The notes beneath the pieces are model-generated. The model had not been told where the DNA came from. It worked only from the letters and a program-made list of their open reading frames with translations, and ran no database searches. Both the position numbers and the translations under genes were made by a program. This document shows, piece after piece, positions 34,450 through 62,118 of a stretch of DNA of 64,000 nucleotides. The stretch is from assembly GCA_047967505.1 (NCBI GenBank), contig CM106538.1; one strand, given 5' to 3'. How positions within the stretch are numbered: the stretch's first letter is position 1; each line of letters starts with the position of its first letter. The stretch comes from Dipteris shenzhenensis (Eukaryota).

Positions 34450-37400
34450 TCCATGCCTCTTCAGGAGTACCACCATCCAAACTCTTACTAGGTGATCTAT
34501 TGATCACATGCACTACAGTCTTCATTGCCTCAGCCCAAAAACCACCAGAAAGACTTGCTTTTTTGCAACTCGATTTTGCTCTGGAGTACGAGGGGATGTG
34601 AGCTCCTTCTTAATCCCACGTGTATCACAGAAATGCTGAAAGTCATGAGAGAGATACTCTCCACCATTGTCAGTCCGTAGGCATTTAAGCATTCTACCTG
34701 ACTCTCAACCAAGGCCAACCATTTCTGAAATACCTGGAACACATCACTCTTCCGAGCTATAGCATAAGCCCACACTTTCCTAGTTGCATCATCAATGAAT
34801 GTCACATAGTATTCAACCCCACCTAATGACCGTGTAGGCATGGGACCACATACGTCTGAATGCACCAAATCAAGCTTTTCAAACTCTTTCTTTCCCCTTC
34901 TTTTATGGGCTGATTTAGTCTGCTTCCCATAGAGACAGTGCTCACAAAATTCAAAATCAAAGAAACTCAAATGCGGTACATAACCCAAATGGCATAAGAG
35001 TTTCATTCCATTCTGGCTCATGTGCCCCAACCTGCAATGCCATAAAGAAGTGCTTGGGTGCTCGGTTATTGCAACAACATGATCAAATATTCCTGATACA
35101 TGTAAGGGATACAAAGTCCCACACTTGGCACCCCTAGCCAAAAGCATAGAGCCCTTCTGAATTTTCCAACTCTGAAAGCCAAAAGTGGTGTGAAAACCAC
35201 CATCATCTAGTTGACCCACTGAAATAAGACTCTTGGTCAACTTAGGCACATGTCTCACATGTTTCAAAATAAATGCAGACCCATTTGCAAAAGAAAACTT
35301 TATGTCACCTACTCCCACTATGTCACATGCATAGTCATTTCCAAGATGCACATAACATGTCTTTCCACTGTCATAAGTGGAGAACCATTCCCTATGGGGA
35401 GTAACATGGAATGAAGCACCAAAATCCAAAATCTAATCCTGGGAATATGCATCATCTGAAGTGGTAAGCAACTCTGCAGATAAAGTAGACATGAAGAGAA
35501 CGTCATTGTCACTATCATGTGTGACTACATTGATCTCCTCGCTCTTCACTTTTCCTTTGTCCTCCCTTGGACTCTCTTCCTTTTGATTTGCACCCCAATT
35601 TGCATTCTTTTTCTTATCCTTTTGCTCTCTTTTCAGCTTGTAGCAATCCTTTTTCATATGGCCCTTCTTGCCACAGTGGTAACACTCAATGTTCCGTGCC
35701 TTGGACTTCCCTCTTTCTTGGGATTTCCCCCTGAACTGTGATCTTCCCCTTTTCACATTTAAGGCTGCATCCTGCTTGTTGCCATCCATAGACTTCCATC
35801 TAATCTCCTCGGCCAACAAGCTACCCACAACATCATCAAATTTCAGTACTCCACCAAGTGCAGAGTTACTAACAGCTGTATGGAAGGTATCCCATGAGGA
35901 TGGCAATGAACATAAGAGATATATTGCCTTAGTCTCCGCATCAAAATTCATCTTCTGAGCCTGAAGCTGGCTGAAAATAATATTGAATTCATTCAAGTGA
36001 GAAGCAATGGAGACCCCTTCCTTCATGTGCAGCTCAAACAACCTCTTCATGAGGTAAACTTTATTAGAGGCAATTTCCTTCTCATAAGTGGCACACAGTT
36101 TCTTCCACAAATCTTCCGTAGTCTGCTCATTTACTATTGTGAAATAAACTAACTCTGCAAGATGAAGTCTGATAGTAGACTTTCCTAATGCATCCAACTT
36201 ATTCCAATCATCCTCAGACATATCTGCTGGCTTAGCTTCAATACCTGCCAAGGGTTTAATCTGCTTCTTTTGAATAAGCACATCCCTTATTTGTTCTTTC
36301 CACAAAGAAAAGTTTGTCCCATCAAACTTTTTAATGCTGAAAGCCTCCTTTTCAAACATGGAAGAGGATGCCATGATGCAAATGAAACAAAATCCCAAAT
36401 GCTAGTACCTGCAAGAGAGAATCACACCAAATACTAGGTGCACCCAAATGTGTATGCCACAATAGAGTGAAATATCACCAAAACTCAAAGCTCAAAGCAT
36501 CAAAAAGATACAGCTGACTCATGTGCATGTACTATGCATCCATGGTCCAAAAGAAAATTGCTAGCAATCCAAAATGCCAATAGGTGCCAAATGGCTCAAG
36601 CATAAACACCATCCATGGGTATATGCATCAATAATATCTCATCCAAGAGAGCATAACACTATCAATGCATCACCTACAATGTGTCAAAGCTATCCCTCAG
36701 CATAAAATAGCATCTATGTGCAAAGCGTCCATAAAAAATAGCATCCCACAAGGTAATCTTTGCCTATCAGCGCATCCAATAAGGATCGCAATGCATCCAA
36801 ATGGCCTATAAATCATCCACTGCAACCCAATGCACACCACGAATGAGCGCACATGGCTCAAACTGCAACCAGAGTGATCTGCATAAGGTATGCTCAAGAA
36901 ATCATGGTCCCACAAAAATGACCGCTACTGAAAATAGAACCTAAGATGCCTCAAAACATGGGCACCATTGCATAATCGGACTTAGCAAGAAAATCTGCAA
37001 ATATCTCTATTCTGCTGGAACTCCAAAATCCCAACCGATGAGTGAGAAACGGGAGTCAACACTTATCCACTGCCATGTGGCATAAATCTAAGTTTTCAAA
37101 ACCTTAGAATGAAAAATGCATAATAGAGAGACGAAATCGAATACACAGAGATCTATAACTCTGAAAATACTCCACCGAATTGCACAAGAACTGACAGGTA
37201 GGGGTTTTTGGGTGTCCGAAACGTAATGGGACAGACGGTTTTAGAAACCGTGGTTTCAATCACTGGGTCCAACACACGGACTGAAAAACGTTTTTTGAAA
37301 CAGAACTGTTTGTAAACTCCACCGGAGTGCAAATGATGAGCAACATAGAAGTTTTAGGACCTCTTGAGTCCACCGGAACTGACAGATCTGCAAATGGTTG

Positions 37401-38020: not shown

Positions 38021-39855
38021 TCATATTTTGAGATGATGATGATTTGGAGAATGTAGTAGATAGGGGACAAAATTGGAAGACTACTCTCATATACTAGTTC
38101 ACTTACAATCAATTGCAACATGACGTAAGTAACTTACTGTACGGTGACTTGCCATGCGAGTTGGTCTCGAACAAAAGCAATAAATGGCGAACTAGAAGAC
38201 AGAGGGGTGATACCATTGGCCGAATGTACAATATTTCCCCATCAACTGGTAAGCTCTACTTCATGCATATGTTGCTTAATGTGTGCAAGGGTTGCAAGTC
38301 TTTTGATTACCTGCATACTTTTGATAGGCAACTCTATTCTACTTTCATGGTAGCATGCATAGCTAGGGGTTTGTTGGAAAGTGATGATGAATGGTTTTTT
38401 TGTATGCAAGAGGACATGTTTTATCGAAATAGCGCAGACTTGAGACACCTATTTGTCACAATTTTGCTTTTTCATGAGCTAATGTCTCTCGGTTCTTTGT
38501 GGCAAAGATTTCCCTCCGAGAATTTAGATGATTTTTTCCATGCATTGGAATCAAGTATGATTTTTTCCATGCATTGAAATCAAGTATGAGGAATTTAATT
38601 GGTCATCATGCCATGGCAAGAAAAGAGCCTGTATTGCACTTGGAGCATATTCTTCTATAGCTTCGGTGAAGGTTGGTAGACTTTGATGGATTGCCTATTA
38701 TCGACAAATCATCTGTGTCGAAAGTTACAAATGGTTTATTGCAAGAAGAAAGAATGTTTGATGCTATGACAGAAGCACAAATTGTCCAACGGATGGTAAG
38801 TACCTTAAATCATGCCAATGGTCTCCCTTCGATCAAATTTTGGTAAGGATCTATAAAGATGGTGGTAAGGTTGGCTAAGCTAATAATTCAAATGAGGCAC
38901 CCATGACTCGTCGGTTTTCATTTGAAGCATTGGATAGAACATTGCAAGATATCATTCAAACTAAGGAACATTTTGGTGGAAAGGTGGTGCTGTTGGGGGG
39001 GGGGGATTTTAGGCAAGCCTTGTCAATGCTTCCAGAGGAAACATAAGGAAACATAAGAGGAATTATCAATGCTACCTTATGCCACTCATGGATTTGGAGA
39101 TGCACTATAGTATTGAAGCTAACACATAATATGTGGGTTCTTCAAAATGGTGATTATTCAATTGAGCAAGAGTTCATACAATGGGTTTTGGACATTGGAA
39201 ATGTGATGAACAGGCATGTACAAGAAGATACTATTGTAGTTCCATCACAAATGCTTTTAGAGACAAAGTCCATGGAAGGCCTAATTGGATGGGCATATAG
39301 AGGGCTTACAATTGTTGTGGATTTTGCACCATATTTTTAAGAGTGCACTATTCTTGCACCTCACAACCTTGAGGTTGATGCAATTAGTTTTACTCATTGA
39401 AGGAAATGCCCGAGAAGCATAGACTCAATGGATAACTCAAATGGAGATTCTTTTTTGTATGTAGTAGAGTATCTGAACAGTCTGGATCTTGGTGGTGGAT
39501 ACCCGCCTCATTGATTGGTTTTGAAAAGGAATCTCCTATAATGTTGTTGCACAATCTAAATCCTCGCCATTCAATGACTGTGTAATGGGACTCAATTGTA
39601 TTGCAAAGATTTTCACATGAAAGCATTAAAAACTAAAATTATTACTGGTACCAATACTAGAGTTAGGACATTGTCTATTTTGGGTCTATACTTGGTGACA
39701 CAAGTGTTCCATCATGGGTAGCTATACGTGGCTTTCTCGCATATCCAAGCATCGAATGTTGTCAAGTATTCCTTCCGAAGAATGTGTATGATGCCATTGA
39801 TGAGGATGCAGGAATAATTTCTACCATAAATGTTGTATACAAAGAAGTTTTTTAA
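38021..39855 (+). pseudogene. Helitron RepHel (PIF1-like helicase region) remnant
   Basis: IGRMYNISPSTGKLYFMHMLL, ACIARGLLESDDEW, FEALDRTLQD...FGGKVVLLGGDFRQ, HG*LYVAFS and the terminal NVVYKEVF are typical Helitron motifs. Confidence 0.9.
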
Positions 39856-43638: not shown

Positions 43639-45639
43639 GAGAGGGGGGGAGAGAGATGTTGGCTCTCAAAGCATCTAAGAAGTTCAACACATGTGATATA
43701 GAAAACACACAATGTTGCAGCAATGAAGATGACTCGACTCCTATTACTTCTTGACAAAATGAGGAATATTGGCTATTACAAGACCTACAAATGACCCCTA
43801 TACCTAGAACTATGAGTAGCTACTAGCTGCGACTCCTACAGGCTCGATGCTTCGACAAAAAGACAGATCTAATTGCCTCCATAGTTCATATACTAATCAG
43901 CTTGGGAGAGATGTCGATTGCAGCCCTCGAACATGTGAACCTTTAAAATCTGTTTGCTGTCAACCAAAGACCAAACACGCGTTCACCATGCATAGGCTAG
44001 TCTCCATATGCTTGCATGGTCTAATCCTCTTCTAGCAGCCACCTCATGAGCACATGAATAAATCACACGACTACCCAGTCGACCACCTGAAGAGCTAATT
44101 CACACAAAAGTGACCCCTAACGGAATTTAGGTCCCTTGTGAAGGAATCTCCAACAAACCCCCCTCAATCCAAACAAGGGATGAACAACCACAAGATGGAC
44201 ATCACAGTCCACAATTCTTCACTAGCTTCATAGCCCTCCAAACATTGCAGTGACATCGTAGTCACTAAAACAACCATCAAACAAAGCTTACTGTTTGGCA
44301 TCGTAGCCAAACCCAGAACCATCATTACTCAAAATGCCCAATCCTGATCGGGCATATCATCACTCACTAAACCAGCTATATCTCCTTTGAAGTAGACTCC
44401 TTGATCACATGCCTTGTGCTTTTCCTTTTTCGTCTCTTCATCCTTTTGTTTTCTGACACAGAACCTCTAGATATGCCCTGGCTAATTGCTGCAATAGTAA
44501 CATGCACAGATATCTCTATTCTTGTTTCTCTAGTCCTTGATGGCAAATGCAGCTTCACCACTAGGAAACATACTCTCCTCTCGCTTCTCTTCTGCCATAA
44601 GCAACCCCACACAATCAATGTAATCTGCTTCATCATCCAATCTGAGAATTCATGAAGTCTCATTGAACTTGGAAGGAAGGATCTTCAGTATTATAGCCTT
44701 TTGATCTTTGTCCTTGATTTTGGATCCAAGGTCTTGCAGTTGTTTCAACAAAGACTACATGCGGTTCAGGAAGGTGGCTAAGTCTTCATTGTCATCCATG
44801 CGTAAGTCGTACAATTGTTGCTTTAAATAGCCTTCGAATGACACATCTTCACTCCAAACAATGTTTCAAGAACTGTCCAATTAGTAACAGTCGACTTAGT
44901 GACTTTGAAATGATGAAAGTAATCCTCCCCTAGTGTTTGACCCATCATGCCAATAGCTTTGTCACTCTGCTTCCTCCAGACCCATTTCTCAGCCTCTCCA
45001 CTAGTCGGTTCTTTCTCTATCCCAGACACGATACTCCATAAACCTTTTTGCATGAACCACAATTTAGTTGAGAGTTGTCAGCTCGCAAAATTCCAACCAT
45101 GGAACTTGATTAACGTCGCTCTTTGTCTTCTTTCCCAAATCCATGGAACAAGGAGTAGATACCTAGAGTCTCCTAAAAACAAGCCTCACATTAGGGGAGA
45201 ATTGGGGTCTCCAAAGGGCCCCCAATTAGTGTTTCCTAATTTTAAGGGATTAGTGAGGTATTTGAGGTGTACCAATGGGAGTGCTCCTTTTTGTGGGGCA
45301 ATGCCATGTTGAGGTGGAGGGTGGCAGACCTACAAACAGCCCCTATTGGCTACTCCTCTTACACTGGGGACCACTCAAACCATCCCCCCCCCTCAACCCA
45401 TGCTTGACCCTTCTCCCATATGCACCTCCCCCAAACAAACCTACAAGTCATTCAAGAGGTGGTGGGCCCTTCTGGGCGAATTTTTCCCCCCTCTCAGCTT
45501 GTTACAGGCCTGCCCCCTCCTCTTCTCTGGTCCAACTCCATTCTCCCTCCATTTTTCAAACGTGGGAACTCATTTGGCATCTTCTCTGCCCCCTCCTACT
45601 CTGGTCCACTATGTTTCTCCCTCTCTGGCACCTCCTGTA

Positions 45640-45870
45640 GCAGCTGCTCATTCTCTCTCCACTCCTAGTTGTAGCACCTCCTACAACACCAGCTGCTCAT
45701 CCCCCTCTGCTCTTTCTTCCTCCATTCCTAGCTACAGTACCTCCTATAGTGGCTGCTCATCCCCCTCTGCTCTTTCTCCCTCCATTCCTAGCTACAACAC
45801 CTCCTGGAGTAGCTGCTCATCCTGCTCTACTCTTTCTCCCTCCATTCCTAGCTATAGCACCTCTTGGAGC
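45640..45870. repeat. Subterminal tandem repeats of about 60 bp
   Basis: GCTGCTCATCCCCCTCTGCTCTTTCTCCCTCCATTCCTAGCTACA... about 4 copies. Confidence 0.8.
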
Positions 45871-45992
45871 TTCTCTCAAGCTTCAGTTGCACCCTCTATA
45901 CTTTCTCCCTCTCTCTCCCTCTATCGGAGCTACTCTCTCCCTCCAAGCTTCACTTTCTAGTCCACTATTGCTGTTGTGACCTCTGTACAAGC

Positions 45993-47267
45993 ATGGTGAG
46001 GAGACCATACATGTACTCTGTGTCCCACAGGAGCAAAAATGCACTGGGTGAATGGGTGCCTTGCACCTACAGCTTGAATGATTGGATAGTCATGAGAGGA
46101 TCTGCCAAGGGTCCACATAAGCTTCCTAAGAGAAAAAGAGGTGATCTTTTGCATGAATGGAAGGGCCGCATCATGAAGTTCAAGCTTGGGAAGAAAGGAT
46201 TGCTTGAAAGGCGCAACACATCTACATGGGGAAGGACATGCACCTTCCTCCGTCGAGCAATCAATCGACAATACCATCGCATTGTAAGTCTACATTTTGT
46301 GTAAGATTTTGAAGTGTAATGCGTCGGCTTGAAATTGTATTTTGAAATAGAACCAGTGTAATGAGTCAGTTTGAAATTGTATTTTGAAATAGCACTTGTG
46401 CATAGCATATGTATTTCCTTCAGACTTTGAGGAGTGGGAACCAGTCGAGTGCTTCTTAAGTAAGTTTACTGCCATTCATGAGGATTTAGGAAGGCAAATG
46501 CACACTGGAGAGAAGTCCTCTACTTTGAAACAGAGAAATATCTATTGGTATAATGCCAAGTACATTACTCCAAGGACAGCATCAGGCTATGGCCATCTTT
46601 AATGCATTGCAACACCACAACTTGAAGACATGGATTGCAGCATGGTGGACACAAGAATAATGCAATCATGCAAGGAAAATATTGCAAAGGATGTGGGCAT
46701 GGCCATGAAGTTTACATTTGGCTCTAAATGGGTAAGGTTGTCTTGGTTTATGCCTCTACACATTTTTGCTTCTTGTTTTCATAATATCCACATGCACAGA
46801 ACAAAAACCATGTGGTCATGCAAGTGCCTACATGAGAATGCCCTTGAGGAATTGCTTGGGGTGAATTGGGGAAGCAGGTCAGGTGAACAAAAGGGTGATT
46901 TGTTTCAATGCCATGTATGTAAGGACAATGTGGTTGTCAAGTACCACGTCTCCCGCCAAATGTTATATTTTGCTTTCCAATATAGGCACTGGAAGAAAAC
47001 AGTGACAATTGGCTCCCCCTTGACTCTAAAGATGATGATAATACAGGGGTAAGTTTATGTATTGGTTCTCATTTGGGAGATGTTAAGAATGTGACTGTCA
47101 TGCCACAGTGGACTCTCAGGGATGTGTGGGAACAACTATAGGTCATGGAGGATGACATGTCTGAGTCCTTTCACTTTACCTTAAATGGTGAAAAGGTAGG
47201 AAAGCGTGCAGAGAAGCTCGTGCATAGTGCCACTTTTATCCCTCCTGCAATATTTAAGATTGTCTAG
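45993..47267 (+). pseudogene. Transposon accessory gene: N-terminal BAH-like domain, possible C-terminal ubiquitin-like domain; probable intron ~46284-46405
   Basis: YSLNDWIVMR...WKGRIMKFK...QHIY...YVFPSDFEEWEPVECFLSKFTAIH...YWYNAKY follows the BAH consensus order. After a frameshift near 47000 it reads KNVTVMPQWTLRDVWEQL*...FHFTLNGEKV...PPAIFKIV*. Confidence 0.55.
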
Positions 47268-47500: not shown

Positions 47501-50500
47501 ATGGATTCTGCTAGGCCTTCCTTCCACGATTTCATCTCCCGTACTCCATTAATTGATAGAGAGGAGGAGTTATTTCCAGTCTTTGATAAGAGCATAGATG
47601 TCCTAGGCACCTACTTGGGAGCCTGAGATGATTTTGAAGACCTCATCAAGTACATGCAAGAATGCATATCAACTTGATGAGTCTACAAAAAGATGGGTCC
47701 CAATTGATTATTTGAAGTACTTGTTCAATCAAGAACCCAGGCTCGTGAAGCATTTAGATCACTTTTGAGCCCAACTCACACCCCTAGGATTTAGGGAGGT
47801 GGACACTGATGACCTCCTAGCATGTGGAGTCATCGAAAACACAGGAAATAGGTTCCTATCTTGGGAAATGATGTAGAGAAGGGGGAAGGGGCAGATTTGG
47901 AGATGGGGAGAGAATAGCAAAAGGAAGGGAGGAGAAGAGAGGAGAAGGGGAAGGAGAAAGGAAGAGAGAGAAGGTTGAGGGAATAGAGAGAGGGAGAGAG
48001 AGAGAGTGTGTGAGTGTAGGCAGCAGGTAGCAGGAGGGAGAGTAGATAGGATTAGATGTCACATCAAAAAGTGCCTTACAATCCTTTTGGGTTGACTTAT
48101 ATAGTCCCCCACAGTTCCCACATTTCCCCTACTATTCTCCCATCTATTTCCCCCTTAAAATCCTTCTTTTTCCCACCTTCATTACAGCCATCCCTTCCCA
48201 AAGAATTTTGCCCTCAAAATTTCCAAGAGGTCGCCTTGGATGAGAAGGATACAACAGAAACTGATCAGCTCTGTAGGAGATAGGGGTAGTCCTGCACAAT
48301 GCTCTCAGGTTGCCAAGAATTCTCATCTTCCGTTATACCTTTCCATTTGATGAGGTATTCTGTGTAGGCTTTGTTCCTGAGTACATGATCTCTGAAGCCC
48401 TTGATTTGCTCTGGCACATAGATTATGTGGCCCTCTTCATCCATAGGAGGTAGCTCAGGAAGAACCTGGACATGTTGTCTGACATGTGGTTTCAGCAAGG
48501 ATACATGGAAAACATTATGGATCTTGGAGGTACTCGGTAGTTCCAACTGATATGCTACCTACCCAACTTTGCGGATGATTTTGTAGGGGCCATAATACCT
48601 GTGGGCAAGCTTTGTGTTGGTATTACCTTTCAGCGAGGAATATCGATTCTTATGGAGACGTAAATGCACATAATCCCCTTCTTCAAAAGATAAGTACCTC
48701 CTTTGTTCATCCGCATACTTCTTCTGCTTGGCTTGGGCATCCTGCATATTCCTCTTAGCCAACTGCAGAAGGGCATTCATACTCTCCAAATCATTCCTTG
48801 CTTGCTGATTTTTCACAGCCAAGTTTGCAACCCTAGAAGGCATTCCCACTTTGCATCCATACATAGCCTCGAATGGACTCATGCCAATAGAGAGGTGTTT
48901 GGTGCTGTTGTAGCAAAATTCAGCCAATGCTAACCATTTGTTCCAAGACTTCTGCGTGTCATGATAGTAATGCCTTAGATACTCCTCCAACCACTTGTTC
49001 ACCCTCTCTGATTGTCCATCCATCTGTGGATGATAAGCAGTACTAGGCGCAAGCAACTGCAGTGAATAACTCCTGCCAAAAGTGACCCATAAATTTAGCA
49101 TCCCTGTCACTGACAATCTCCTGAGGAAAACCATGGTGCTTGAACACATACTCAATGAATTGCCAGGCAACCTGTGAAGCGGAGTACCGAGTTTTAGTCG
49201 GTATGAAATGGGCCTGCTTAGTCATCCTGTCAACCACCACAAATATGCTATCCCAACCCTTATCTGTAAAAGGCAAGCCTGTAATGAAGTCCATGGCAAT
49301 GTGAGTCCATTTGCCTTCAGGAATGGGTAGCGGTTGCAGAAGGCCTGCGGGTAACCAGCTGTCCACTTTATTTTGTTGGCAGGGCAAACATTCACTGACA
49401 AACTTAACCACATCTCGCCACAAACCATCCCAAATAAAGCTCTCCTTGACTTTTTCATATGTTTTTGTGATACCCGTATGCCCTGACATAGGGGATGAGT
49501 GCATTTCCTGTAATACCATCAACCTGTACTTGGAGTCTGGCACAAGATAAATTCTGTCCTTGCACCATAACAGTTCGTTGCGGAGCTGAAATCGAACATG
49601 TCCTTGGCTGGACGGACTCTGTAACTCCACAAAAATAGGAGCTGCATCAGAATTTTGCATGTATTCCTCCTGAATCCCAAGTATCCACTCCTGATGAAGC
49701 ATGGAAATGGCAGACAGTTTGCATGACCACATCCTGGACAAGGCATCAGCAACCACATTCTCTTTCCCCTTTCTATATTCAATGTCAAAATCATAGGACT
49801 GAACTGCAGCCAGTGATCTCTTCTGCTTCATGGATAAATTAGGCTGCGTTAAGAAGTACTTGAGTGTCCTGTGATCCGTTTTGACCTTAATCTTGCTACT
49901 GTACATGTAGTGGTGCCATTTTGCAAAAGCATGCAAGATTGCCAGCATCTCTTGATCATAAACATGATAATTCATTTCTCTGGCATTAAGCTTCCTGCTC
50001 TCAAAAGCAATCACACCATGCTCTTGTTTTAGGACAGCCCCTAAACCTTTGCCACTGGCATCCGTCTCAATAATGAAAGACCGTGAGAAATCAAGGCACA
50101 CCAATACAGGTGCATTGCTAAGGGCATCCTTGAGGTTATCAAAGCTGAGTTGTGCTGCTTCTGACCATTGGAAGGCATCCTTTTTCAACAAATCAGTGAG
50201 AGGGGCAGCCCTTTTAGCGAAGTGCCTAATGAATCTCCTGTAAAAAGAAGCAAGACCCAAGAAACCTCTGAGTTGCGTGGTATTTTGTGGCTGCGGCCAC
50301 TCCTTAATGCATTTCACCTTAGCTGGGTCTACCCTGATTCTGTGCCTACTTACAACATGACCAAGATATTCAACCTCCTCTGCCATAAATGTGCACTTGC
50401 TGGCCTTGGCATAAAGCTGATGCATTCTCAAGATTTCTAGCACTTGTCGGACATGGTCAATGTGTTCCTGTGCATCCTTACTATAAATGAGAATGTCATC

Positions 50501-53500
50501 AAAAAATACCAGCACACATTTGAAAAGAAGGTGGTGTAAGATCTTGTTCATGAGTGCCTGGAATGTGGCTGGTGCATTAGTCAAACCAAAAGGCATCACC
50601 TTGAACTCATATAATCCTCTTTCTGTACGAAAGGCAGTCTTATGCTCATCACCCTCTTTCATCCTGATCACTTTCAGACCATGGTCTATCTCTGTAGCAA
50701 CTAATCCCAATCTTTGCAATGTTCTACAATTAATGAAACTGTGAGTGCTACCACTGTCTACCAATACATGGACAGATTTGCCATTAATCATTCCCTTCAA
50801 CCTGATTGTGTCAACACTTTTGGCACCCATCAAGGCATGTAGTGAGATGGTATACAGTGTAGACTGGGCATCCCAATAAATCTGTTCATCATCCATAGGA
50901 ACATTACCATTAGCATCACCTCTGACAGGAAAAGGCATTGTATGTTGATGCTCTAACACAGAGAGTGTTGGCTTACGGCCTTTCCTGCTACATGTAGGCT
51001 GAATATCAATCTCATGCATCACATGAGTGGTTTGCTCAATAGCCCCACCCGGATCAAAAGGAAAAACAGTCCCCTTTGTGGCATCTGTGTCAGGAGACTC
51101 ATCTACATCATGAACTCCTGTCAATTCCTCATGAGAGACATCATGGGGGTCTGCTACATCAGCCACTTCATCATCATCAGATAATTCAATTATCATGATG
51201 AGTTTGGCTGAGCTGACATTCTTCATTTTGCACACATCTCAGTGCTCAGGTGTCCATTTCTCTCCACACCTAAAGCATAAATTTGCCTTCTTCCTGTTGT
51301 CCATTATGGCTCTGGAATGTTGTTTAACTTCTGATTTGCCAAAACCAGCACTGGGTTTGACACCTGTCTTTGCATCCATGGGCCTGTATGGCTTTGCATA
51401 TGGCATCTTACTTCTAGAAACCGTTGGATATCGTGGGAAGGAAGTAGCTGCTGGTTTTTTATCAATCCAATCAGCAGAATTTGTCTTCCTGTCAACATCA
51501 TAAGCAGTACCATAGAAGCTATTGACACATGCTTGTACTTGCCAGCATATTTTGGCTCAAACACCTCAGCAAGCTGGGCTGCTCGCTCAATGGTTAGAGG
51601 ATTGTGAGCTCTCACATCAGCAGCTAGAGAGGGATCTAAGCCTTGTATAAAACGCAGCAACTTCCCTTTCTCAGAAATATCCTGTACAAACAAAGAAAGT
51701 CTCCAAAGACGCTGCAAGTACTCCTGGACCGTACCTGTTTGTGACAGTGCATAGGATTCAACAAGGTACTGTTCAAGGATCAGGGCCGAGACGAAGGTCG
51801 TGACCATAAGCTCCTTGAACTGTTTCCAGGTGGTAGGCTTCTGAGGTGACTCTCGCATGTAACGCCACCATGTATGTGCATAATCCTGTAAATGCATGCC
51901 AGCAAAAATGATCCTCTCCTCATCATTCTTAGGGTAGAAGCGGAAGTAATCTTCAAGCTTTGTGAGCCACTCCTCCAACTCATTGGGAGTGCGAGTGTCA
52001 CCCTTAAACTTATGCACAGAGATTTTATCTTTCACATCTTTGGCTGCATTATTCCTATAGTGACTACTAGCATACTCACGCTTGAAGCTCACATACTGTG
52101 AAAAGGGCATCTCATTACGAACATCCTCAGGCAAAGCCCTATATGAACGTAAGGCATCTGAAAGCATATCATCCAGGTTTGCATGCTGCCCACTTCCAGC
52201 ATCATGTTGGTTAGGAGAACCACTCCCCTGATGCATAAAGTGCGTCTGACTGAAAGCATTACCTCCCTGATACGCAGGCTGAGTCTGACTGAATGTATTA
52301 ACAGGAGGTGTCATCGAAGCATGCAATCTCTGCTGAGTCTGCCTGCCATAAACATCTCGGTGGGTGGGTGGCATAGAAAAAGGTTGAGAAGAGGATTGAC
52401 CCCTCTCCCAACTGCCCTGTTCAACCCAACACCCAATCCAGGCATGCTCGCCGTTGGCAAAAATGTGCCAATGGGCTGGCCCAAAATGGACGGCTCAGCC
52501 AATGAAATATGCGAGCCAAATGGAGGCCTGGAATCAATAAGAGAAGTGCTCGGCGGCATGGGCAAGGCATCACCAAAATCAACATAATCCCCATGCTAGG
52601 GTGCATGCATAGAACCAACATCATAAGTGCGACGGCCATCAGCCATAAATCCCCTGTGTGGGTCAGGAAAATCACCCTGGCTATCCGACTGATCCCTGTG
52701 CTGGGGTGCGGGCTGCTTACCCTTATCGTGCATACTGATGGCGGTAGTGATCTGTTGCCCAAGGTTCTTACCTATCTGGGTGATAGCTGTATCGTGCATA
52801 GCCATAGCAGTGGTGAGCTGCTGCCCCAACTGCTGACCCATCTGCTGAAAAGCCCCCTGAAGCATCGAGGCCAATGCATCTAGAAATTGTGTGTCGGTAG
52901 GCATAGCAAAAACTGGCTGTGAAGGAGATGCACCCTCTGGGACTGGCATCTGCTCCTGCTGAGCAACATCGTCACCGTGCTGAGATGACTCATTCGACCG
53001 GGGTGCACGTTTGGGTGCCATGAGTGACACGAGGAAAATGTGCCAAGTGTCAAAGGCTCGATGTAGAGGCTCGAGAGGTGTCAGTAAAGAGGCTCAAATG
53101 CAGTCGTTGAAGAGGTTCAAAGAAAGCTCGGTGAAGAGGCTGGAAATGGGGCTCAAAATGAGCCACGAAGGTGGCTTAGAAAGGCCCAGAATAGGGCTGT
53201 AGGAGTACCCTAAAAGAGGGCTCTTTTTTTTTTTTTTTTTTTGGAGCTTAGGACAACTAAGACACCTAGGGTAGTCTCAACTAAACCAAACTGACTAAAC
53301 CCAACCTTATCCAATCACTAACCTAACTAGACCTAAACTAACCTAACCAACCAAACCCAAGTAGCTAACCAACCCAACCTAAACCCCAACTAGCTGAACC
53401 TTAGCAATTGCTAAGGTCTCCAGCGATGCAGCGCCGATGAAAGGCGACATCAACGGCACGGGCGGAGAAGGCACGAGCGTGACGTGGGCGCCAAGATGGT

Positions 53501-55344
53501 GACGGGTTGCAGGCACAATGCCAGGATGGTGACGGGCTTTGGCGACTGACGGGCTGAGGGCCTGAGCGACGGATGGGCAACAACGCCAGAGATGCAGGCT
53601 ATGGTGGCTGATGGGCTAAGGGAAGGAAAAACGGCGGGGCGACGATGGGGGAGTTGGAGTAGCGACGACGGGGAGCTGGAATACTACACAGACTGTTGAG
53701 GCTCAAACTTGCAACGCAGGCTACTGGACAGCAACGTAATCAGGCATGTCGTTGATGGCGCACGTCCGTGCTGTTGTTTGTTTGCTGGCAGCCCACGCTT
53801 GTTTCCTTGACGATTTCCTTGACGTAGCTTGGCCGACGACATGCTAGTAGTTCCCCTCAGCCTGAAGCACTGGCAAACCATGATTGATAGCAAGACTCAG
53901 TGAGGGTCAGGTGCCAAGAGCTTGGGCTCTGATACCAATGTAGAGAAGGGGGAAGGGGCAGATTTGGAGATGGGGAGAGAATAGCAAAAGGAAGGGAGGA
54001 GAAGAGAGGAGAAGGGGAAGGAGAAAGGAAGAGAGAGAAGGCTGAGGGAATAGAGAGAGGGAGAGAGAGAGAGTGTGAGCGTAGGCAGCAGGTAGCAGGA
54101 GGGAGAGTAGATAGGATTAGATGTCACATCAAAAAGTGCCTTACAATCCTATTGGGTTGACTTATATAGTCCCCCACAGTTCCCACATTTCCCCTACTAT
54201 TCTCCCATCTATTTCCCCCTTAAAATCCTTCTTTTTCCCACCTTCATTACAAATGACCTTTATTTTCCTTCTCCAGGAGGGACAAATGGAAGAGGAGGCC
54301 TCGACCTCAAGCCCTGACCCTACCCCTGCCCTTTCCGATCCTCTTATTTCTGTAGTTGAGCCCAACATGTACAATGAAGAGCCCATAGATGAAGAAGCTG
54401 AGGAGCGGGAAGCTGCATTGGCCCTGGAAGTGCTCCAGCGACCTCCTGAACCCCATTCTACTTCTCAAATTCCATCCACCTTGGGCACCACCTCTGTTGA
54501 CCCCGCAATAATGATATGGTTTCTTGCTCCCCTTCTTGTCGATGGAGAACAATACCTCTTTCTCCATGACATAGAGGTTATGTTTGGTCTCCGGGAGGAT
54601 GAAGCTCTTGGTATCCTGTGTGGATATGAGGTGGACATGACTATACAAGAACCTGGGTTTTTGGAAGCATATGATTCAATAGAAGAGGTTCTTGCTTTAA
54701 CACTGGCCCAAATCAAAGATGTAGAGACATCAATCTACTCCAACCTACCTGATGTTCCAGAAGAAGCCTCCACATCTCACTGTAGATAGCAAGAGGCCTC
54801 TGGATCCATCCTCATTGACAAAGAGGAAGGGATTGAGCATGATGACTCCATAGTGGTAAGAAACTATGAGCTTTGAATTTCTTCTCTCTTGGTATACTTT
54901 TGCTTTAATGGAATTCTAATGTAATGTTGGACTGTTGCAGGAGGCATTTGAGGTCGACCTATTCTCATCTCGGCAACACCTTGTTCGCAGTAGCTTCGGC
55001 CGAGATCACTCACTGGAACATTACCTTGGCCAAGCAAAAGGGTGCTTTGTGGTTATCCACAAAAAGTTTTCTCCACATGGCATTAGTGCAAGGCCTTGTC
55101 AAGAGTGATTGGTCATGCTGACATCAATCGCAATGCTGACAAGGTCATTTTGGTGAACCGCATGGCTGCCCTCAATGCCTTTGGAACCAATTTTCAAGGT
55201 ATGGCATTGATGGCAGCAGCCATGTCCCTGGTCAGTAACAACAATAGCAATGACTCTCTATCAACTAGGGTTAGAGCTAGGAGTGTATTTGGGAATTCAA
55301 AGCCCAATGTTCTTAGTGTTTTAGAGAAGAGAGAAAGGCTCTAA
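47501..55344 (+). pseudogene. Second plus-strand accessory gene of unknown function (acidic), split by the nested Gypsy
   Basis: ATG 47501 (MDSARPSFHDFISRTPLIDREEELF). Coding-like sequence resumes after 54256 (EGQMEEEASTSSPDP...). A phase-0 GT-AG intron lies at 54856-54940. Stops and frameshifts are present. Confidence 0.45.
47872..54251 (-). mobile_element. Ty3/Gypsy chromovirus LTR retrotransposon, young, with an internal deletion
   Basis: LTRs 47872-48186 and 53939-54251 are nearly identical; perfect TSD AATGA; PBS-Met 53926-53937; gag 51304-52374; pol 49043-51235 (LVDSGSTHSF, VFFDDILIYS, IETDASG, HIAMDFITGLP); chromodomain EYLIKWKG...NSW at 48265-48546. Confidence 0.95.
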
Positions 55345-55569: not shown

Positions 55570-55900
55570 TTGCGCAGCAGAAGGCAAATGTGTTCGGCAT
55601 CGCGCGGGGAGCCCAAAAATGGCAAAACCCGCTATGGCACGTATGGGGCCTGTTTGACCCATACGCGCCATAGAGGGTTTTGCCACATGTTCGGCATCGC
55701 GTGGGGAGCCCAAAAATGGCAAAACCCTCTATGGTGCGTATGGGGCCTGTTTGACTTAGGGAGCCCAAAAATGGCAAAACCCTCTATGGCGCGTATGGGG
55801 CCTGTTTGACTAAGTCAAACAGGCCCCATACGCACCATAGAGGGTTTTGCCATTTTTGGGCTCCTCGCGTGATGTCGAACACATTTTCCTTCTGCCGCGA
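55570..55900. repeat. Fold-back made of tandem and inverted copies of a roughly 52-bp unit
   Basis: GAGCCCAAAAATGGCAAAACCCTCTATGGCGCGTATGGGGCCTGTTTGACT occurs three times forward, then inverted around a 1-nt centre at 55812. Confidence 0.9.
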
Positions 55901-55983: not shown

Positions 55984-56578
55984 GGTCTGCTTTGTCCTTG
56001 GTCTCTTTTCCTTTTCATGAGGCTGTGAGACAGTAGGCTGAGGCTCTTGCTCAGCTTGTACTAGAGGCTCCTCATATTTGATCATCTCGAGGCACAGAGG
56101 GTTGATGGTGCTCTTTCGTGCGGTCTGCTTGGCTGAAGGATTGGGGCCAAGGTTCATTATATCTGCGAGCCCGCCAAATACTTCCTCTTGTTGTGGCCCC
56201 TGTAATCTCTCCATCTCCTCTCTTTGCCTTTCTTGCTCCCCTTGTTGATCTAGATGCCCCACGCTAGGACCCCACGGAGAAGGGAGGGGCAGTTGATCAG
56301 GACTGACTGGACTATTTTGCCCCTCTCGGGAGACCTCTCTACTTCCACGATTAGTTGTGGAAGGACTGAGGGGAGCCCTCATCATGCTTAGATCCTTCAT
56401 CGTGCTGGGATTCCTCATGGCACTGAGATCCCTGGGATCTCCCATGAGAGTTGGATGGTGGGGACTCGTGTTGCTTGGACTCCTAGTGAGGAGACGTTTC
56501 TATGGCGTTGTGAGGAGGACAACGGGTAGCATCTAAACGGCATCCAGTGGGTCTAGCAGTTTGTTTAACTCGTGCCAT
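55984..56578 (-). pseudogene. Small disordered protein with three histone H3-tail-like motifs; frameshifted and apparently 3'-truncated
   Basis: ATG at 56578 gives MARVKQTARPTG. KQTARKST is at 56130-56107 and PRTKQT at 56001-55984. One frameshift and one stop lie between the first motif and ORF 55810-56445. Confidence 0.7.
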
Positions 56579-56593
56579 AGAAATGAGGGATTT

Positions 56594-56662
56594 TAGGGTT
56601 TTGAAGTGCTTTATATAGTCTTTTTTAAAGCACTTTAGGGTTTTTCTTTTAAATTAGGGTTT
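56594..56662 (-). promoter_or_regulatory. Putative promoter: three telo-boxes (AAACCCTA) and a TATA box
   Basis: TAGGGTTT at 56594, 56636 and 56655; CTATATAA on the minus strand at 56618-56611, directly upstream of ATG 56578. Confidence 0.6.
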
Positions 56663-56858: not shown

Positions 56859-59738
56859 TTACATTTGGGGCTCTCTTAGGACCCAACGCCTCCCCTGTCT
56901 GACTCTACGTTGCAACCAAAGTGCAACCCCTTGGCTCCCTATTGAGGACTTCCAAGCAGCAAATCTCCTTGTCTTCTTGACATGTTGAACCGCTTTTGTG
57001 AGACTTGAGAACTCTACCTTATCACGCTTGAGAGTCCTGGCCTCTAGACATCTATAAAACCAATCGAACATTTCGTGTAGTGCATTGCTTTGCGCGATAC
57101 CACCCCCATGCCTTGTATTCTTGAAGTATGCTACCTTTGCTCTGTAGTGTGATTTCTCCATTCCTTGAGTATTCCAAATGGACAGAGGGCCCCATTGCTC
57201 CACAAACCATGGTGCATGTGCGTAAAGAATATGCTGTAAAGAAAAACATTGTATTAGAAACATAAATTGACTCAAGTTTAAAGCACAAAATTTCAACCTA
57301 AGGAGGATTACCATGTAATGTGTAATATGTGACTCCCCCCATGCTTCTACCATCAATGATATGAATTCTCCCAATGCTATCCTAAATCTCTCATAATAAA
57401 GCTCATCTGTTTGACCTTGTCTAAGCAACTTTATAAATGCATCAAGATTTGTCCACAGTTTTGCTCTCAAAGTAGCAATTCACGGATGTGAAGCTTGATT
57501 TGTGGTGCACTCACAAAAATCTTTCTAGTATTTCCAACCTAGGGTGCTTTGAGCCAATGTATGTTTTTCTTTATCAGCATTGTGGTTGGACAAGTACCTC
57601 CTTGCCTTTCCTCCACCCATGGACACTTTAGCAGGAAGATTTTGTGTCTTTCCTGATTGTTTCTTATCCTGCTTAAGCTTCACATTGCCTCCGTGAAGTC
57701 CCATTAGTGAGAGTAGTTCTTTAGCTTTTGCAATGCATTGTGCAGATACTTGATGTGGCCTCAAATTCCAAGCATAAACTAGATGGAGATAGAGTAACTT
57801 ATCAAGTATACGCAGTTCAGTATGCAAAGTACACATGTGTACTTGCTCCAATGGAATTGGTAGAATGGGGTCCGACTTAGGATCCTTTTTGTGACAATCA
57901 GGGGCTACACTTTGGTTGCAAGAAAGGATGCCATTTTCCCACTGTAGGCTTCCCTTTTGCATCTTCTGAGAGTGGGTGAATACAAGCATGTCCATTTTGC
58001 ATCTGCACCTATATCACAACCATACAAGCACTTGAGGGTCTTCAAATCACCAGATTCCATTCAACTTGAAACATTCCATGCCCATCCACGATTAATGTTT
58101 GCCCTACCTCTTGTCTTCGAATAATCGACGGGATGCCGCTCTCTTCAAAACCCACTTCAATGTCTCGTGGCACTCCTTTGGGGTCTCAAAGGTTGCAAGC
58201 CACCATATGTCCTTCTAAGATTGGACTAAGAAATCCTGCTCAACTTCCTCATCCCCTTGAGCAAAACGCAAGGCGTCGTTCATAATACAAATGCTCACCC
58301 TTTCTAGCTTGTGCTCTTTTACCAACTGAGCTTCATCCATTTTTATAACAAATACTAGCTTGCCATCTGTACAATGAAAGAGAAATTCAATAAGGATATA
58401 GAAATCAAAAGAAATAAAGTTGAATGTGAAGAGGGAATTTCTCTTACCTTCTTCTCTCATCCCATAGAATTTGACCATGGCTCTCTGCAAATTCTTTACA
58501 TCCACATAAACATTATTGAAAGCATTCATCTCAAACATTTGGATGCCAGATTTCTTTTTACTCTTCCAAGTCATTGTGCCACTTACACAATGGTATCCTC
58601 CAAGCTTTTCTCTAGCACATTGGTTTGTTTCTTGACGTGCAAGCCTTACAGACCACGGTGTTGGCAATGGCATTGTAGATATCTTATACTTTTCCTCCAT
58701 AGTAGACTTGAAAATTTTAAAAACAGAGTTGTAAGCTTCACGACTTACACCAATAGCATCACAAGCTCCAAGCACCTCCTTTGCTTGGACGAGGCCCTTG
58801 AAATCCTTCATTACCTCTCTAGCAACTTGTTTACATAGCCCTTTTTGTCTAGGGTCCTTCAACACTTCCATGACATCACTTGGCTTTATTAAACTTCTTA
58901 GAACATATGAAGGATCACTATTATCCATTTCCATTGTTCCCATCACATCCTCTATGAAATTCCTAAAGTAGAGTACAAATGAGTCTTAGTGGAAAGAATG
59001 CAACACCACAAATATTTTGGTGTAAGCAATTTCATTGAAAATTTTGGGAACTAACCTTGCAGCCTGTATTCTCCTCTTTCGGGCACCACTACTGGTTGAC
59101 AATGCATCCATAGATTGCAATTATCTTTTCCTCTCCTTTAGTCCCAAAGGTGTTCCCTTCAACTTTTGTACTTGTTCTATCGACTTCTCTTGTTCCTTCT
59201 CCACAGCACATTGAACTTGGCCATAGATAGACCTTTCCAAATCTTGTTTGCTTTCAGCAAGCTTTTGGATTGATTCTTCCAATTCATGTCGCTCCAAGTC
59301 CAGTGCATGTGCTTTGTCACTGAGTTCTTTGTTTTGCAATTGGAGATCCTACATACTATTATGCATTGCCACAATAGTAATATTTCCCAAATGTGCAAGT
59401 TCTTATGCTTGGGCTCTCTGCACCTCGCTTGCTTGCATAGCCAATGTCTGAGAATGGTTCAATCGATTGCAATAACCGAGCAATCCAGCATGTCCCTTGC
59501 CAACAAACCGAACAACATCATGCACTGTATGAAAAGGAGGACTCTTTTGGGTGGCAGGGTCTAAAGGATACAAGTTTCCATCCACCCAAAGGACAAGATG
59601 CTTCTTCCCTTGCAATTGAAGACTGTGGAGCACACTTTGAGGAGTTCCACTATATCCCAAAGAATGTGTGCTTGCATATTCTGCCTCCAGTTGTAGGTTC
59701 ACATGGTACTTGTTGGATATGTCCTCGAATGGTGCCAC
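56859..59738 (-). pseudogene. RAG1/Transib-like DDE transposase with three predicted GT-AG introns (59055-58963, 58447-58367, 57311-57234)
   Basis: FVIKMDE (D at 58337-58335); GDLKTLKCLYG...WTCLY[C] (D at 58048-58046); CTLHTELRI; ITHYM|HILYAHAPWFVEQWGPLSIWNTQGMEKSH (E at 57158-57156). Order and spacing parallel the RAG1 core. N-terminal coiled coil. Several stops and frameshifts. Confidence 0.75.
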
Positions 59739-60937
59739 GAGTACTTAAAGAGAGGTATAAGTGATGCTGGCTAAAATGTAGGGGAGAGCTGGCAAAGATG
59801 GAGTAGTGAGAGGGAGAGAGTAGCAAGGAAGAGGGAGAAGGAGAAGCAGATGAGGGCAAGAGGAAGAGGAGGGGAAGAGTAGGGCGACAGGTGTAGAAGG
59901 GAGGGAAGGAGCTGCTGTAGAAGCGAGGAGGAGGGGAGAGATGCTGCAAGAGGGAGGAGGAGGGGAGAGATTCTGCAGGAGGGAGGAGCAGAGAAGAGGG
60001 ATCCTAGGCAGGTGGAGAAGGACGGGAGAGGAAGGAGGGAGGAGGAGCTAGAAGGAGGAGGACAGGAGAGGGAGGAGGGAGGAGGAGGAGCAAGACGGAG
60101 GAGGGGAGAGGAGGAGGGAGGGGGAGGAAGGGAGACGGAGAGGGAGAGGAAGGAGGAGGAGGGAGGGAGGTAGGCAGGGAGGGAGAGAGAGGGAGAGAGG
60201 GAGAGAGAGAGAGAGAGAGGGAGGGAGGGAGGGAGATTCGAAATTTGAAATTCAAATTTCAAAAAGTGGCCCCCTCCCCTCATTGATGGGGGGAGAGGTG
60301 GGCTCAAATGTGGGCTTAACCCACCTAGGTTGGGCTGGTTAGGCCTCTTTGGGACCCTCCAAGCCCATTGCATTAGCCCACTAAGCATTCCCTAATCCAT
60401 TCCTTATGAGGCCCTTTTGAGACCCCAATTCTCCCCTAATAGTTAATAAAACTATCCCTAATCTTCGTGTTCTACCCGACAAACTTCTAGGTCTCTGGAG
60501 TTGGCGAGGAAAAGCAAGTCTTCCTTTCCTACAGAGTTTCCTCGACACACCAACTCGATCACTGCTTCAATCACACGCTTTTATACCATTGTTTGCTTTG
60601 ATACCATTGTTGGCTCTCAAAGCATCAAAGAAATTCAACACAAGTGATATAGAAAACACACAATACTGCACTTCTATTATTGTTTGACAAAATGAGTCTC
60701 AACCCTATGGGGTTTGTTGGCTATTACAAGACCTACAAATGACCCCTATACCTAGAAGTATGAGTAGCTACAAGCCACGACTCCTACATGCTCAATGGCA
60801 TTGATAAAAAGACAGATCTAAATGCCTCCATAGTTCATATATTGGTCATCTTGAGAGAGACATCGATTGCCGCCCTCGAACATGCGTGAACCTTCAAAAT
60901 CTGTTTCCTATCAACCTAAGACTAGACACGCATTCAT

Positions 60938-61864: not shown

Positions 61865-62118
61865 TTCACCATGCATAGGCTAGTCTCCATATGCTTGCAT
61901 AGTCCAATCATCTTCTAGCAGCCACCTCATGTGCACGTGAATAAATCACACGACTACCCAACCGACCATCTAAAGAGCTAATTCACACAAGTGAGACCCC
62001 TAACGGAATTTAGATCCCTTCTGAAGGAATATCCAACAAGACAGAGAGAGAAAGAGAGACAGAGAGAGAGGGAGGAGAGCAAAAAACACTCACACACACA
62101 CACAGAGAGGGAGGGGGG

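Follow-up and report, generated by a model that had tools for sequence, protein, structure and literature searches.

A three-part BAH-fold accessory protein inside a decayed RAG1-like transposon of Dipteris shenzhenensis, from a multicopy family spread from mosses to ferns

Background

Among chromatin-reading partners of transposases, RAG2 is the textbook example, and how it originated is a matter of continuing debate. It binds H3K4me3 through its PHD finger (PMC8355894). In RAGL elements the RAG1L and RAG2L genes are convergent (PMC7204232). Here we analyze a locus of Dipteris shenzhenensis in a stretch of 64,000 nucleotides from contig CM106538.1 (assembly GCA_047967505.1), called the window below, which is eukaryotic and repeat-rich. 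At this locus a gene on the + strand, BAH-UBL, named for its BAH domain and its probable ubiquitin-like end, and a RAG1-like transposase on the - strand are enclosed by a pair of candidate terminal inverted repeats. A sequence-only reading of this DNA had placed a BAH-like chromatin-reader domain at 45993-46602, in the position that RAG2L occupies in RAG-like transposons. The analysis indicates that BAH-UBL codes for a three-part BAH-fold accessory protein inside a decayed RAG1-like transposon, and that it belongs to a multicopy family reaching from mosses to ferns; we regard this as shown, or nearly so.

Like RAG2 and RAG2L of the RAGL and ProtoRAG elements, BAH-UBL accompanies a RAG1-type transposase as the second, convergently oriented gene inside the terminal repeats. 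It also resembles RAG2 in bearing a domain of the histone-reader class, which in RAG2 is the PHD finger (PMC8355894). Unlike RAG2, however, the protein has neither a kelch/WD-type propeller nor a PHD finger, being composed instead of an N-terminal BAH domain, a middle domain and a probable beta-grasp, and the two are not homologous. A further difference from RAG2 and RAG2L is that at least two additional open reading frame (ORF) regions separate BAH-UBL from the transposase.

The predicted structure of the BAH-UBL protein shares its fold with the BAH readers EBS, SHL, AIPP3, ASI1, ORC1, BAHCC1, TNRC18 and Ash1L (Z 10.5-12.9), and two of its three cage positions are aromatic, at the spacing found in OsASI1. 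On the other hand, it scores below the Pfam BAH threshold, has a conserved His in place of the central Trp, lacks the PHD, AAA, RRM or TFIIS partner domains of those readers, and is encoded by a transposon.

Classical Transib elements are described as single-gene elements, whereas the element described here has an accessory gene, BAH-UBL. In having a transposase with a RAG1/Transib-type motif it resembles the Transib elements of plants, where 39 Transib-like proteins have been counted (PMC9435367). The readers captured by transposons are mostly Chromo and PHD domains, and the chromodomain of MAGGY targets H3K9me regions (bioRxiv 10.1101/2021.11.30.470311); BAH is not among the transposon fusions named in the available part of that work. 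Like chromoviruses, the element carries a chromatin-reader-type module of its own, but the fold is another one and the module is a separate accessory gene, not fused to an integrase or transposase. A full-text search of one literature collection gave no report joining 'Transib' and 'BAH domain', and no such gene was found among the matches listed for BAH with DNA transposon, transposase or accessory, or for Transib with bryophytes.

Gene structure and decay of the window copy

The sequence-only reading had based its BAH call on five motifs. All were found in the window where it had placed them, and all are on the + strand:

46068-46097, + strand: YSLNDWIVMR
46158-46184, + strand: WKGRIMKFK
46214-46225, + strand: QHIY, one frame over from the other motifs
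46408-46479, + strand: YVFPSDFEEWEPVECFLSKFTAIH
46543-46563, + strand: YWYNAKY

Comparison of homologues with the window by tblastn revealed a gene of about 400 residues with one intron, on the + strand from 45993 to 47264, followed by its stop codon at 47265-47267. Its parts are:

45993-46283, + strand: exon 1, N-terminal half of the BAH domain (tblastn, P0004 residues 21-96 and 80-107)
46284-46405, + strand: intron, GT..AG, 122 nt (read from the sequence)
46406-46640, + strand: start of exon 2, C-terminal half of the BAH domain, with an in-frame TAA at 46600-46602 (homologue matches)
46641-47045, + strand: conserved middle domain, with a frameshift at about 47001 (conservation among homologues)
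47046-47264, + strand: C-terminal, probably ubiquitin-like beta-grasp, with an in-frame TAG at 47139-47141 (P0004 residues 353-402, P0003 residues 206-270)

The window copy is a pseudogene with two frameshifts and two in-frame stops. In exon 1 the loss of one base near 46206 moves the reading from frame 0 to frame 2, and exon 2, which extends over 46406-47264 as a whole, contains the TAA at 46600, a frame slip near 47001 and the TAG at 47139. Contigs of the public sequencing run X1 that carry related copies have an extra C after 46206, and one such contig reads C for T at 46600 and another, or the same, an extra G after 47001. Since the related contigs differ from the window at these three sites, it is the window copy that is broken there; the contigs with the corrected sites carry 17-base gaps of their own. 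The frame shift that had been assumed at QHIY is genuine, as indicated by the extra C and by the homologues, in which the shifted motif is kept as VQHVY or VRHAF. Homologue matches run straight across the TAA at 46600, indicating that this stop is a lesion. The interval 45993-46602 singled out by the sequence-only reading is the 5' half of the gene and the BAH part alone: it does contain the domain, but its end is a mutation and the gene continues to 47264.

The homologues P0018, P0033 and P0019 have no insert at the position of the intron. One X1 contig (depth 16.6, side 27) joins 46282 to 46408, skipping 125 nt in frame, and another crosses 46284-46405 unspliced. The contig that skips the intron gives a weak hint of a spliced transcript, provided that run X1 is RNA, which is a guess. 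An additional intron at 46733 was rejected, since the homologues have a continuous ORF at this position.

The BAH-UBL protein family

The downstream exon, with the TAA read as X, was used as query in a HMMER search of 1.84 billion representative proteins. The search retrieved 58 proteins at E<=1e-3, six of them at E<=1e-10 and the best at 8.2e-13; two of the 58, P0041 and P0052, are unrelated repeat proteins. Forty members were aligned, the other 18 being short, frameshifted or unrelated. Members from a named species are one hypothetical protein from the moss Ceratodon purpureus and two from the fern Adiantum nelumboides. The three-part architecture extends over about 400 residues at 20-45% identity among the moss-type, fern-type and other members. 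In run X1 the family is multicopy, with 47 contigs at 85-99% identity; three further runs, X2-X4, yielded no related contig. A word-index search with P0004 returned P0004 itself and no other protein. The family has no Pfam name, and its annotation in moss and fern is only 'hypothetical protein'.

A hidden Markov model (HMM) was built from ten members of the full-length type. The window gene, with X at the breaks, scored 293.7 bits against this HMM, compared with a maximum of 4.5 bits among 200 shuffled sequences, and a chance resemblance was rejected on these values.

Fold of the encoded protein

The structural model is that of an intact homologue, P0033, and not of the broken window copy. AlphaFold2, run with the 40-row alignment, gave a mean predicted local distance difference test score (pLDDT) of 82.4 and a predicted template-modelling score of 0.65. 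In a Foldseek search of the PDB this model had 81 matches at E<=1e-3, and the best 40 of the 81 were all BAH-bearing proteins. The highest was Ash1L PHD-BAH (1.3e-5), and the matches listed were Ash1L, BAHCC1, DNMT1, EBS, TNRC18, MET1, Orc1p, AIPP3, SHL, ORC1b, ZMET2, DIM2, MTA1 and Sir3. VIA-align, which works independently of Foldseek and has a background Z of 7-8, was applied to 48,161 representative chains. BAH domains occupied ranks 1-17, with Z 9.0-12.9 and 106-141 residues aligned (ORC1b: Z 12.9, 131 residues, root-mean-square deviation 2.9 A), and 19 of the 50 rows listed, on model residues from about 7 to 189 or 202.

A profile built from the ten members with a preserved N-terminus had a single match in the PDB at E<=10, namely the BAHCC1 BAH domain (6vil_A, E 0.017, 17.3 bits). 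In this alignment the VQHVY of the family lies opposite the strand bearing the cage Trp and Tyr, and YPS..D.W and FFY..Y lie opposite later BAH strands; the motif order is the one that the sequence-only reading had proposed. The Foldseek and VIA-align comparisons of the predicted structure, together with the BAHCC1 profile match, indicate that the domain adopts the BAH fold, and it is probably a very divergent BAH homologue. Absence of a BAH fold had been named beforehand as the result that would speak against the proposal; the P0033 model was instead found to superpose on solved BAH domains.

The BAH part is followed by the middle domain and by the probable ubiquitin-like end. In the P0033 model the middle domain is a mixture of helix and strand, with pLDDT 89-96 over residues 200-330. 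Beta-grasp folds (ubiquitin-like, PB1, UBX and similar) made up 31 of the 50 VIA-align rows listed, on model residues 323-418, at middling Z of 7.2-8.6; pLDDT in this region was 58-80, falling below 50 after residue 397. P0034 had a weak Pfam match to OTU1_UBXL (E 0.015). On the model, the C-terminal domain is probably a ubiquitin-like beta-grasp.

No kelch or WD family of Pfam was found in the 40 members or in the 34 of 57 ORFs of the element (of at least 55 residues) that were scanned, and no PHD family was listed for the same members or seen in the same ORFs. The lone PHD-type match, a weak one to PHD_ash2p_like (E 0.1), came from P0031, in its frameshifted tail. A RAG2 homologue with kelch repeats and PHD finger was therefore rejected, the model consisting of BAH, a helix/strand domain and a beta-grasp, in agreement with the original statement that the protein is not RAG2 itself.

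The positions corresponding to the aromatic cage of BAH readers form a candidate pocket. Its first side position is W or Y in nine of nine members, at the position of the canonical cage Trp nine of ten members have His and one has Tyr, and the second side position is Y or F in all ten. The first side position was assigned by spacing alone and the others through the BAHCC1 profile alignment. Counting the extra base of the related contigs, the spacing in the window is +20 and +22, the same as that of Tyr55, Trp75 and Phe77 in the BAH domain of OsASI1, where these residues hold an unmodified Arg of SUVH6 (PMC9910501). The alignment columns suggest that this is likely to be a conserved pocket that differs from the classic cage.

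The enclosing element and its transposase

The features that define the element around BAH-UBL are:

45190-45220: left arm of a candidate terminal inverted repeat, 31 nt, 97% complementary to 60410-60440
60410-60440: right arm of the candidate terminal inverted repeat, pairing with 45190-45220
56859-58985, - strand: RAG1/Transib-like transposase in three ORF pieces, 58985-58215, 58013-57525 and 57479-56859 (homologues)
55995-56578, - strand: three histone-H3-tail-like peptides, MARVKQTARPTG, AKQTARKST and RPRTKQT (reading of the sequence)

The similarity of the left arm continues inward, in weaker form, for about 100 nt. The 18-nt core of the inverted repeat occurs at these two places only in the window, and two or more matches were obtained in none of 100 shuffles. 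Directly outside the shared 31 nt there is a CAC at the left end; the right end has none. BAH-UBL starts about 770 bp inside the left arm and, being on the + strand (45993-47264), converges with the transposase on the - strand (58985-56859), both lying between 45190 and 60440. The inverted-repeat pair and the ORF strands agree with the earlier statement that the gene is near the left terminal repeat and convergent with the transposase.

The transposase was compared with the PDB by means of P0069, a fragment and the one homologue spliced across the intron. RAG1 accounted for 15 of the 19 matches at E<=10, the best whole-sequence E being 0.0088. Residues 49-88 of P0069 align to RAG1 928-967, with His58, His63 and Glu83 opposite His937, His942 and Glu962, so that the alignment shows the Zn-His pair and catalytic-Glu motif of the RAG1 core; the window transposase keeps the motif QGMEKSH. 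This signature agrees with the earlier comparison of the locus with RAG-like transposons. In the ESM Atlas, whose results are leads and not tests, RAG1 clusters were the top named ones for P0092 residues 215-764 (0.97, 203 of 256 features), eight of the ten best named matches agreed on RAG1, and the Atlas's own model matched a RAG1 model with a template-modelling score of 0.66 over 448 residues. We consider it quite likely that the neighbour is a transposase of the Transib/RAG1 superfamily.

The transposase intron divides ...THYMV from LQHILYAH. Between the ...VQS and YRCRCK pieces the window transposase lacks about 85 residues found in homologues, including the conserved block VEWH..GDLKTLKCMLG...FPCIYCC. 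Since the GDLK...CIYCC stretch is absent, this transposase copy is defective too.

The H3-tail-like peptides are close together, within some 580 bp, on the strand of the transposase, which bears out the earlier mention of an H3 mimic in the element as far as the presence of such peptides is concerned. MARVKQTARPTG begins at an ATG (56578) and has a TATA-like box and three AAACCCTAA repeats just upstream (56590-56660); the other two peptides, AKQTARKST and RPRTKQT, come later and in a different frame. In histone H3, K9 and K27 both stand in an ARKS context (PMC13068663). The stretch may be either the element's H3-tail mimic gene or a 5' end captured from a host H3 gene.

Role of the BAH-UBL protein

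On balance, and with some reserve, we favor the view that the interval encodes the BAH-fold domain of an accessory protein of about 400 residues, belonging to a Transib/RAG1-like cut-and-paste transposon of non-seed land plants and acting as a chromatin-binding subunit. In intact copies, the BAH-UBL protein would be the chromatin-binding subunit of the element. Contact with a histone tail or a nucleosome surface would be made by the BAH pocket (W/Y, His, Y/F), and contact with the transposase or a host factor by the middle and ubiquitin-like parts; cutting or integration would be tied in this way to the chromatin state. Such a role would parallel that of the RAG2 PHD finger for RAG1 by means of an unrelated fold, as an analogy and not a homology. 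If it is true, the pairing of a RAG1-type transposase with a chromatin reader arose more than once, and there would be a second tractable system for studying how a reader gates a RAG1-type nuclease. Plant epigenetics would gain a transposon-borne BAH protein with an altered pocket, and this protein and the adjacent H3-tail look-alike would be candidates for target choice or escape from silencing.

Several results weigh against this view, the first group of them concerning the BAH domain. The window's own pieces, searched by sequence, matched no Pfam family and no PDB entry, BAH included. The comparison with the Pfam BAH model (PF01426), which had been proposed as a check of the domain, was negative: the best of the 40 members, P0018, reached 15.5 bits (E 0.017) against a cut-off of 30.8. 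BAH was the commonest Pfam family among these members, yet it matched three of them, the other 37 having no BAH match even at E<=10. Against the PDB, the A1 profile, which is without the N-terminal columns, found no BAH domain and just phosphomevalonate kinase (E 0.18), and P0018 alone found no BAH domain, its matches being antibody light chains and an amidotransferase (E 0.05-0.45). The earlier BAH call accordingly holds for the fold of the P0033 model, which matches solved BAH domains, and fails for the Pfam score of the members. As for the pocket, the sequence columns do not give a canonical aromatic methyl-lysine cage. Methyl-lysine reading by a W/Y-His-Y/F pocket appears doubtful, since a conserved His stands where the back of the cage would have its Trp. 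There are also BAH domains whose ligands are proteins or nucleosome faces and not marks.

The second group concerns the transposase and the element. The best single stretch of the P0069-RAG1 comparison is marginal, at 14-15 bits and an independent E-value of 0.15-0.29. Pfam RAG1 matched the same stretch at E 0.049, with 12.2 bits against a cut-off of 25, in one of 25 members, and was not found in six longer transposase homologues; no curated Pfam family was assigned to the transposase ORFs of the window or to 24 plus 6 homologues. Two transposase family profiles did not find RAG1 in the PDB, and the AlphaFold2 model of P0066 was poor (pLDDT 56) and had no Foldseek matches. No recognisable target-site duplication is present at the ends of the inverted repeat. 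BAH-UBL and the transposase were found together at this locus only. Six metagenome loci with the transposase, obtained by the P0078 search, showed neither a BAH gene nor an H3-like motif, these loci being too short to hold the neighbours. The linkage of BAH and transposase is thus known from one locus, together with a neighbouring motif common to two fern proteins.

An alternative is that the BAH protein, perhaps together with the H3-tail-like protein, diverts the readers or writers of host heterochromatin and so keeps the element expressed, with no guiding of the transposase. Transposon accessory proteins can undo silencing, as in the case of VANC of the VANDAL elements. The closest structural matches of the P0033 model include the plant silencing readers EBS, AIPP3, ASI1, MET1 and ZMET2, and a gene with an ARKS-type H3-like motif lies in the same element. 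However, the Z-scores fail to separate these plant readers from the BAH domains of ORC1, PBRM1, TNRC18 and Ash1L, and we consider a counter-silencing function unlikely, though worth keeping in view.

Somewhat less credible is a pairing within the element, in which the H3-tail-like peptides encoded by the element itself (MARVKQTAR..., AKQTARKST) would be the ligands of the BAH pocket, and their binding would serve to assemble or gate the transposition complex. The closeness of the three peptides, all within about 580 bp on the transposase strand, would suit such a pairing, as would the top VIA-align match, 5hh7, a BAH-PHD cassette with unmodified H3 peptide. There is also a precedent in the BAH cage of ASI1, which reads a non-histone peptide of SUVH6 (PMC9910501). 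Against it, the TATA-like box and the AAACCCTAA repeats precede the first H3-like motif, which could come from a host H3 gene whose 5' end was captured. The six related transposase loci are likewise without H3-like motifs, and no homologue of the H3-like stretch was seen, none having been sought.

A more elaborate form of this idea, which we hold to be just as doubtful, is that of a self-contained pseudo-chromatin module. Here, in a RAG1-like transposon of early land plants, a protein beginning like histone H3 and repeating the K4-K9 stretch of its tail would be combined with a BAH-UBL reader that has an unusual W-His-Y pocket, and the reader would bind either the mimic or the competing true H3 tail and so switch the RAG1-like transposase according to the chromatin state. 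If true, the RAG1-RAG2-histone logic behind V(D)J recombination would have been invented here independently.

Plant DNA transposons often carry captured fragments of host genes, and the window copy of BAH-UBL is dead, as expected of a passenger kept by chance and useless to the element. We consider this improbable, because the three-part architecture has been kept over about 400 residues at 20-45% identity. In addition, the distance of the BAH part from host BAH domains is great enough for Pfam to miss it, which favors a long independent evolution. The contig that skips the intron also hints at a spliced transcript, if the guess that run X1 is RNA is correct. An ordinary host gene adjoining the transposon, or a chance BAH look-alike, would fit an arrangement seen at one locus only, but is highly improbable given a gene inside the inverted-repeat pair, a multicopy family of 47 contigs, a copy decayed like its neighbors and a BAH fold reached by three independent routes (profile, Foldseek and VIA-align).

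Other features of the element and the window

Two further features lie between BAH-UBL and the H3-like stretch:

47871-54251, - strand: nested long terminal repeat (LTR) retrotransposon, of the Ty3/gypsy type by eye, splitting the host element (LTR pair)
54290-54789, + strand: ORF with LFLHDIE...LREDEAL (P0019 residues 242-273 and P0056 residues 235-286 match 54502-54651)

The LTRs of the nested element, at 47871-48186 and 53938-54251, are 98.1% identical over 316 nt. By eye it contains gag, protease-reverse transcriptase-RNase H-integrase and a chromodomain-like C-terminal end (48265-48558). The LFLHDIE ORF matched no Pfam family. Its module, ...DGE.Y.FLHDIE..F.LREDEAL..., is repeated in the two Adiantum proteins P0019 and P0056, where it follows a truncated BAH part.

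Dense nested inverted repeats, with arms of 28-86 nt that are 91-100% complementary, occupy 55573-55900, between the LFLHDIE ORF on the + strand and the H3-like ORF on the - strand. This cluster may be a hairpin-forming insert or one resembling a miniature inverted-repeat transposable element. Between the left terminal repeat and BAH-UBL, at 45313-45960 on the + strand, there is a Ser/Pro-rich stretch of low complexity holding a repeat of about 123 bp (45644-45743 and 45767-45863, 80% identical). The element is flanked by direct repeats that are 85-91% identical, 43801-44156 on one side and 60749-60936 plus 61865-62039 on the other, the right copy being split by about 930 bp.

Elsewhere in the window, the + strand ORF at 38098-38577 matched no Pfam family and looks, by eye, like the portion of Helitrons that separates the Rep and helicase parts. 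A pair of ORFs at 34530-36401 on the - strand is, by eye, of the Ty1/copia gag-integrase type.

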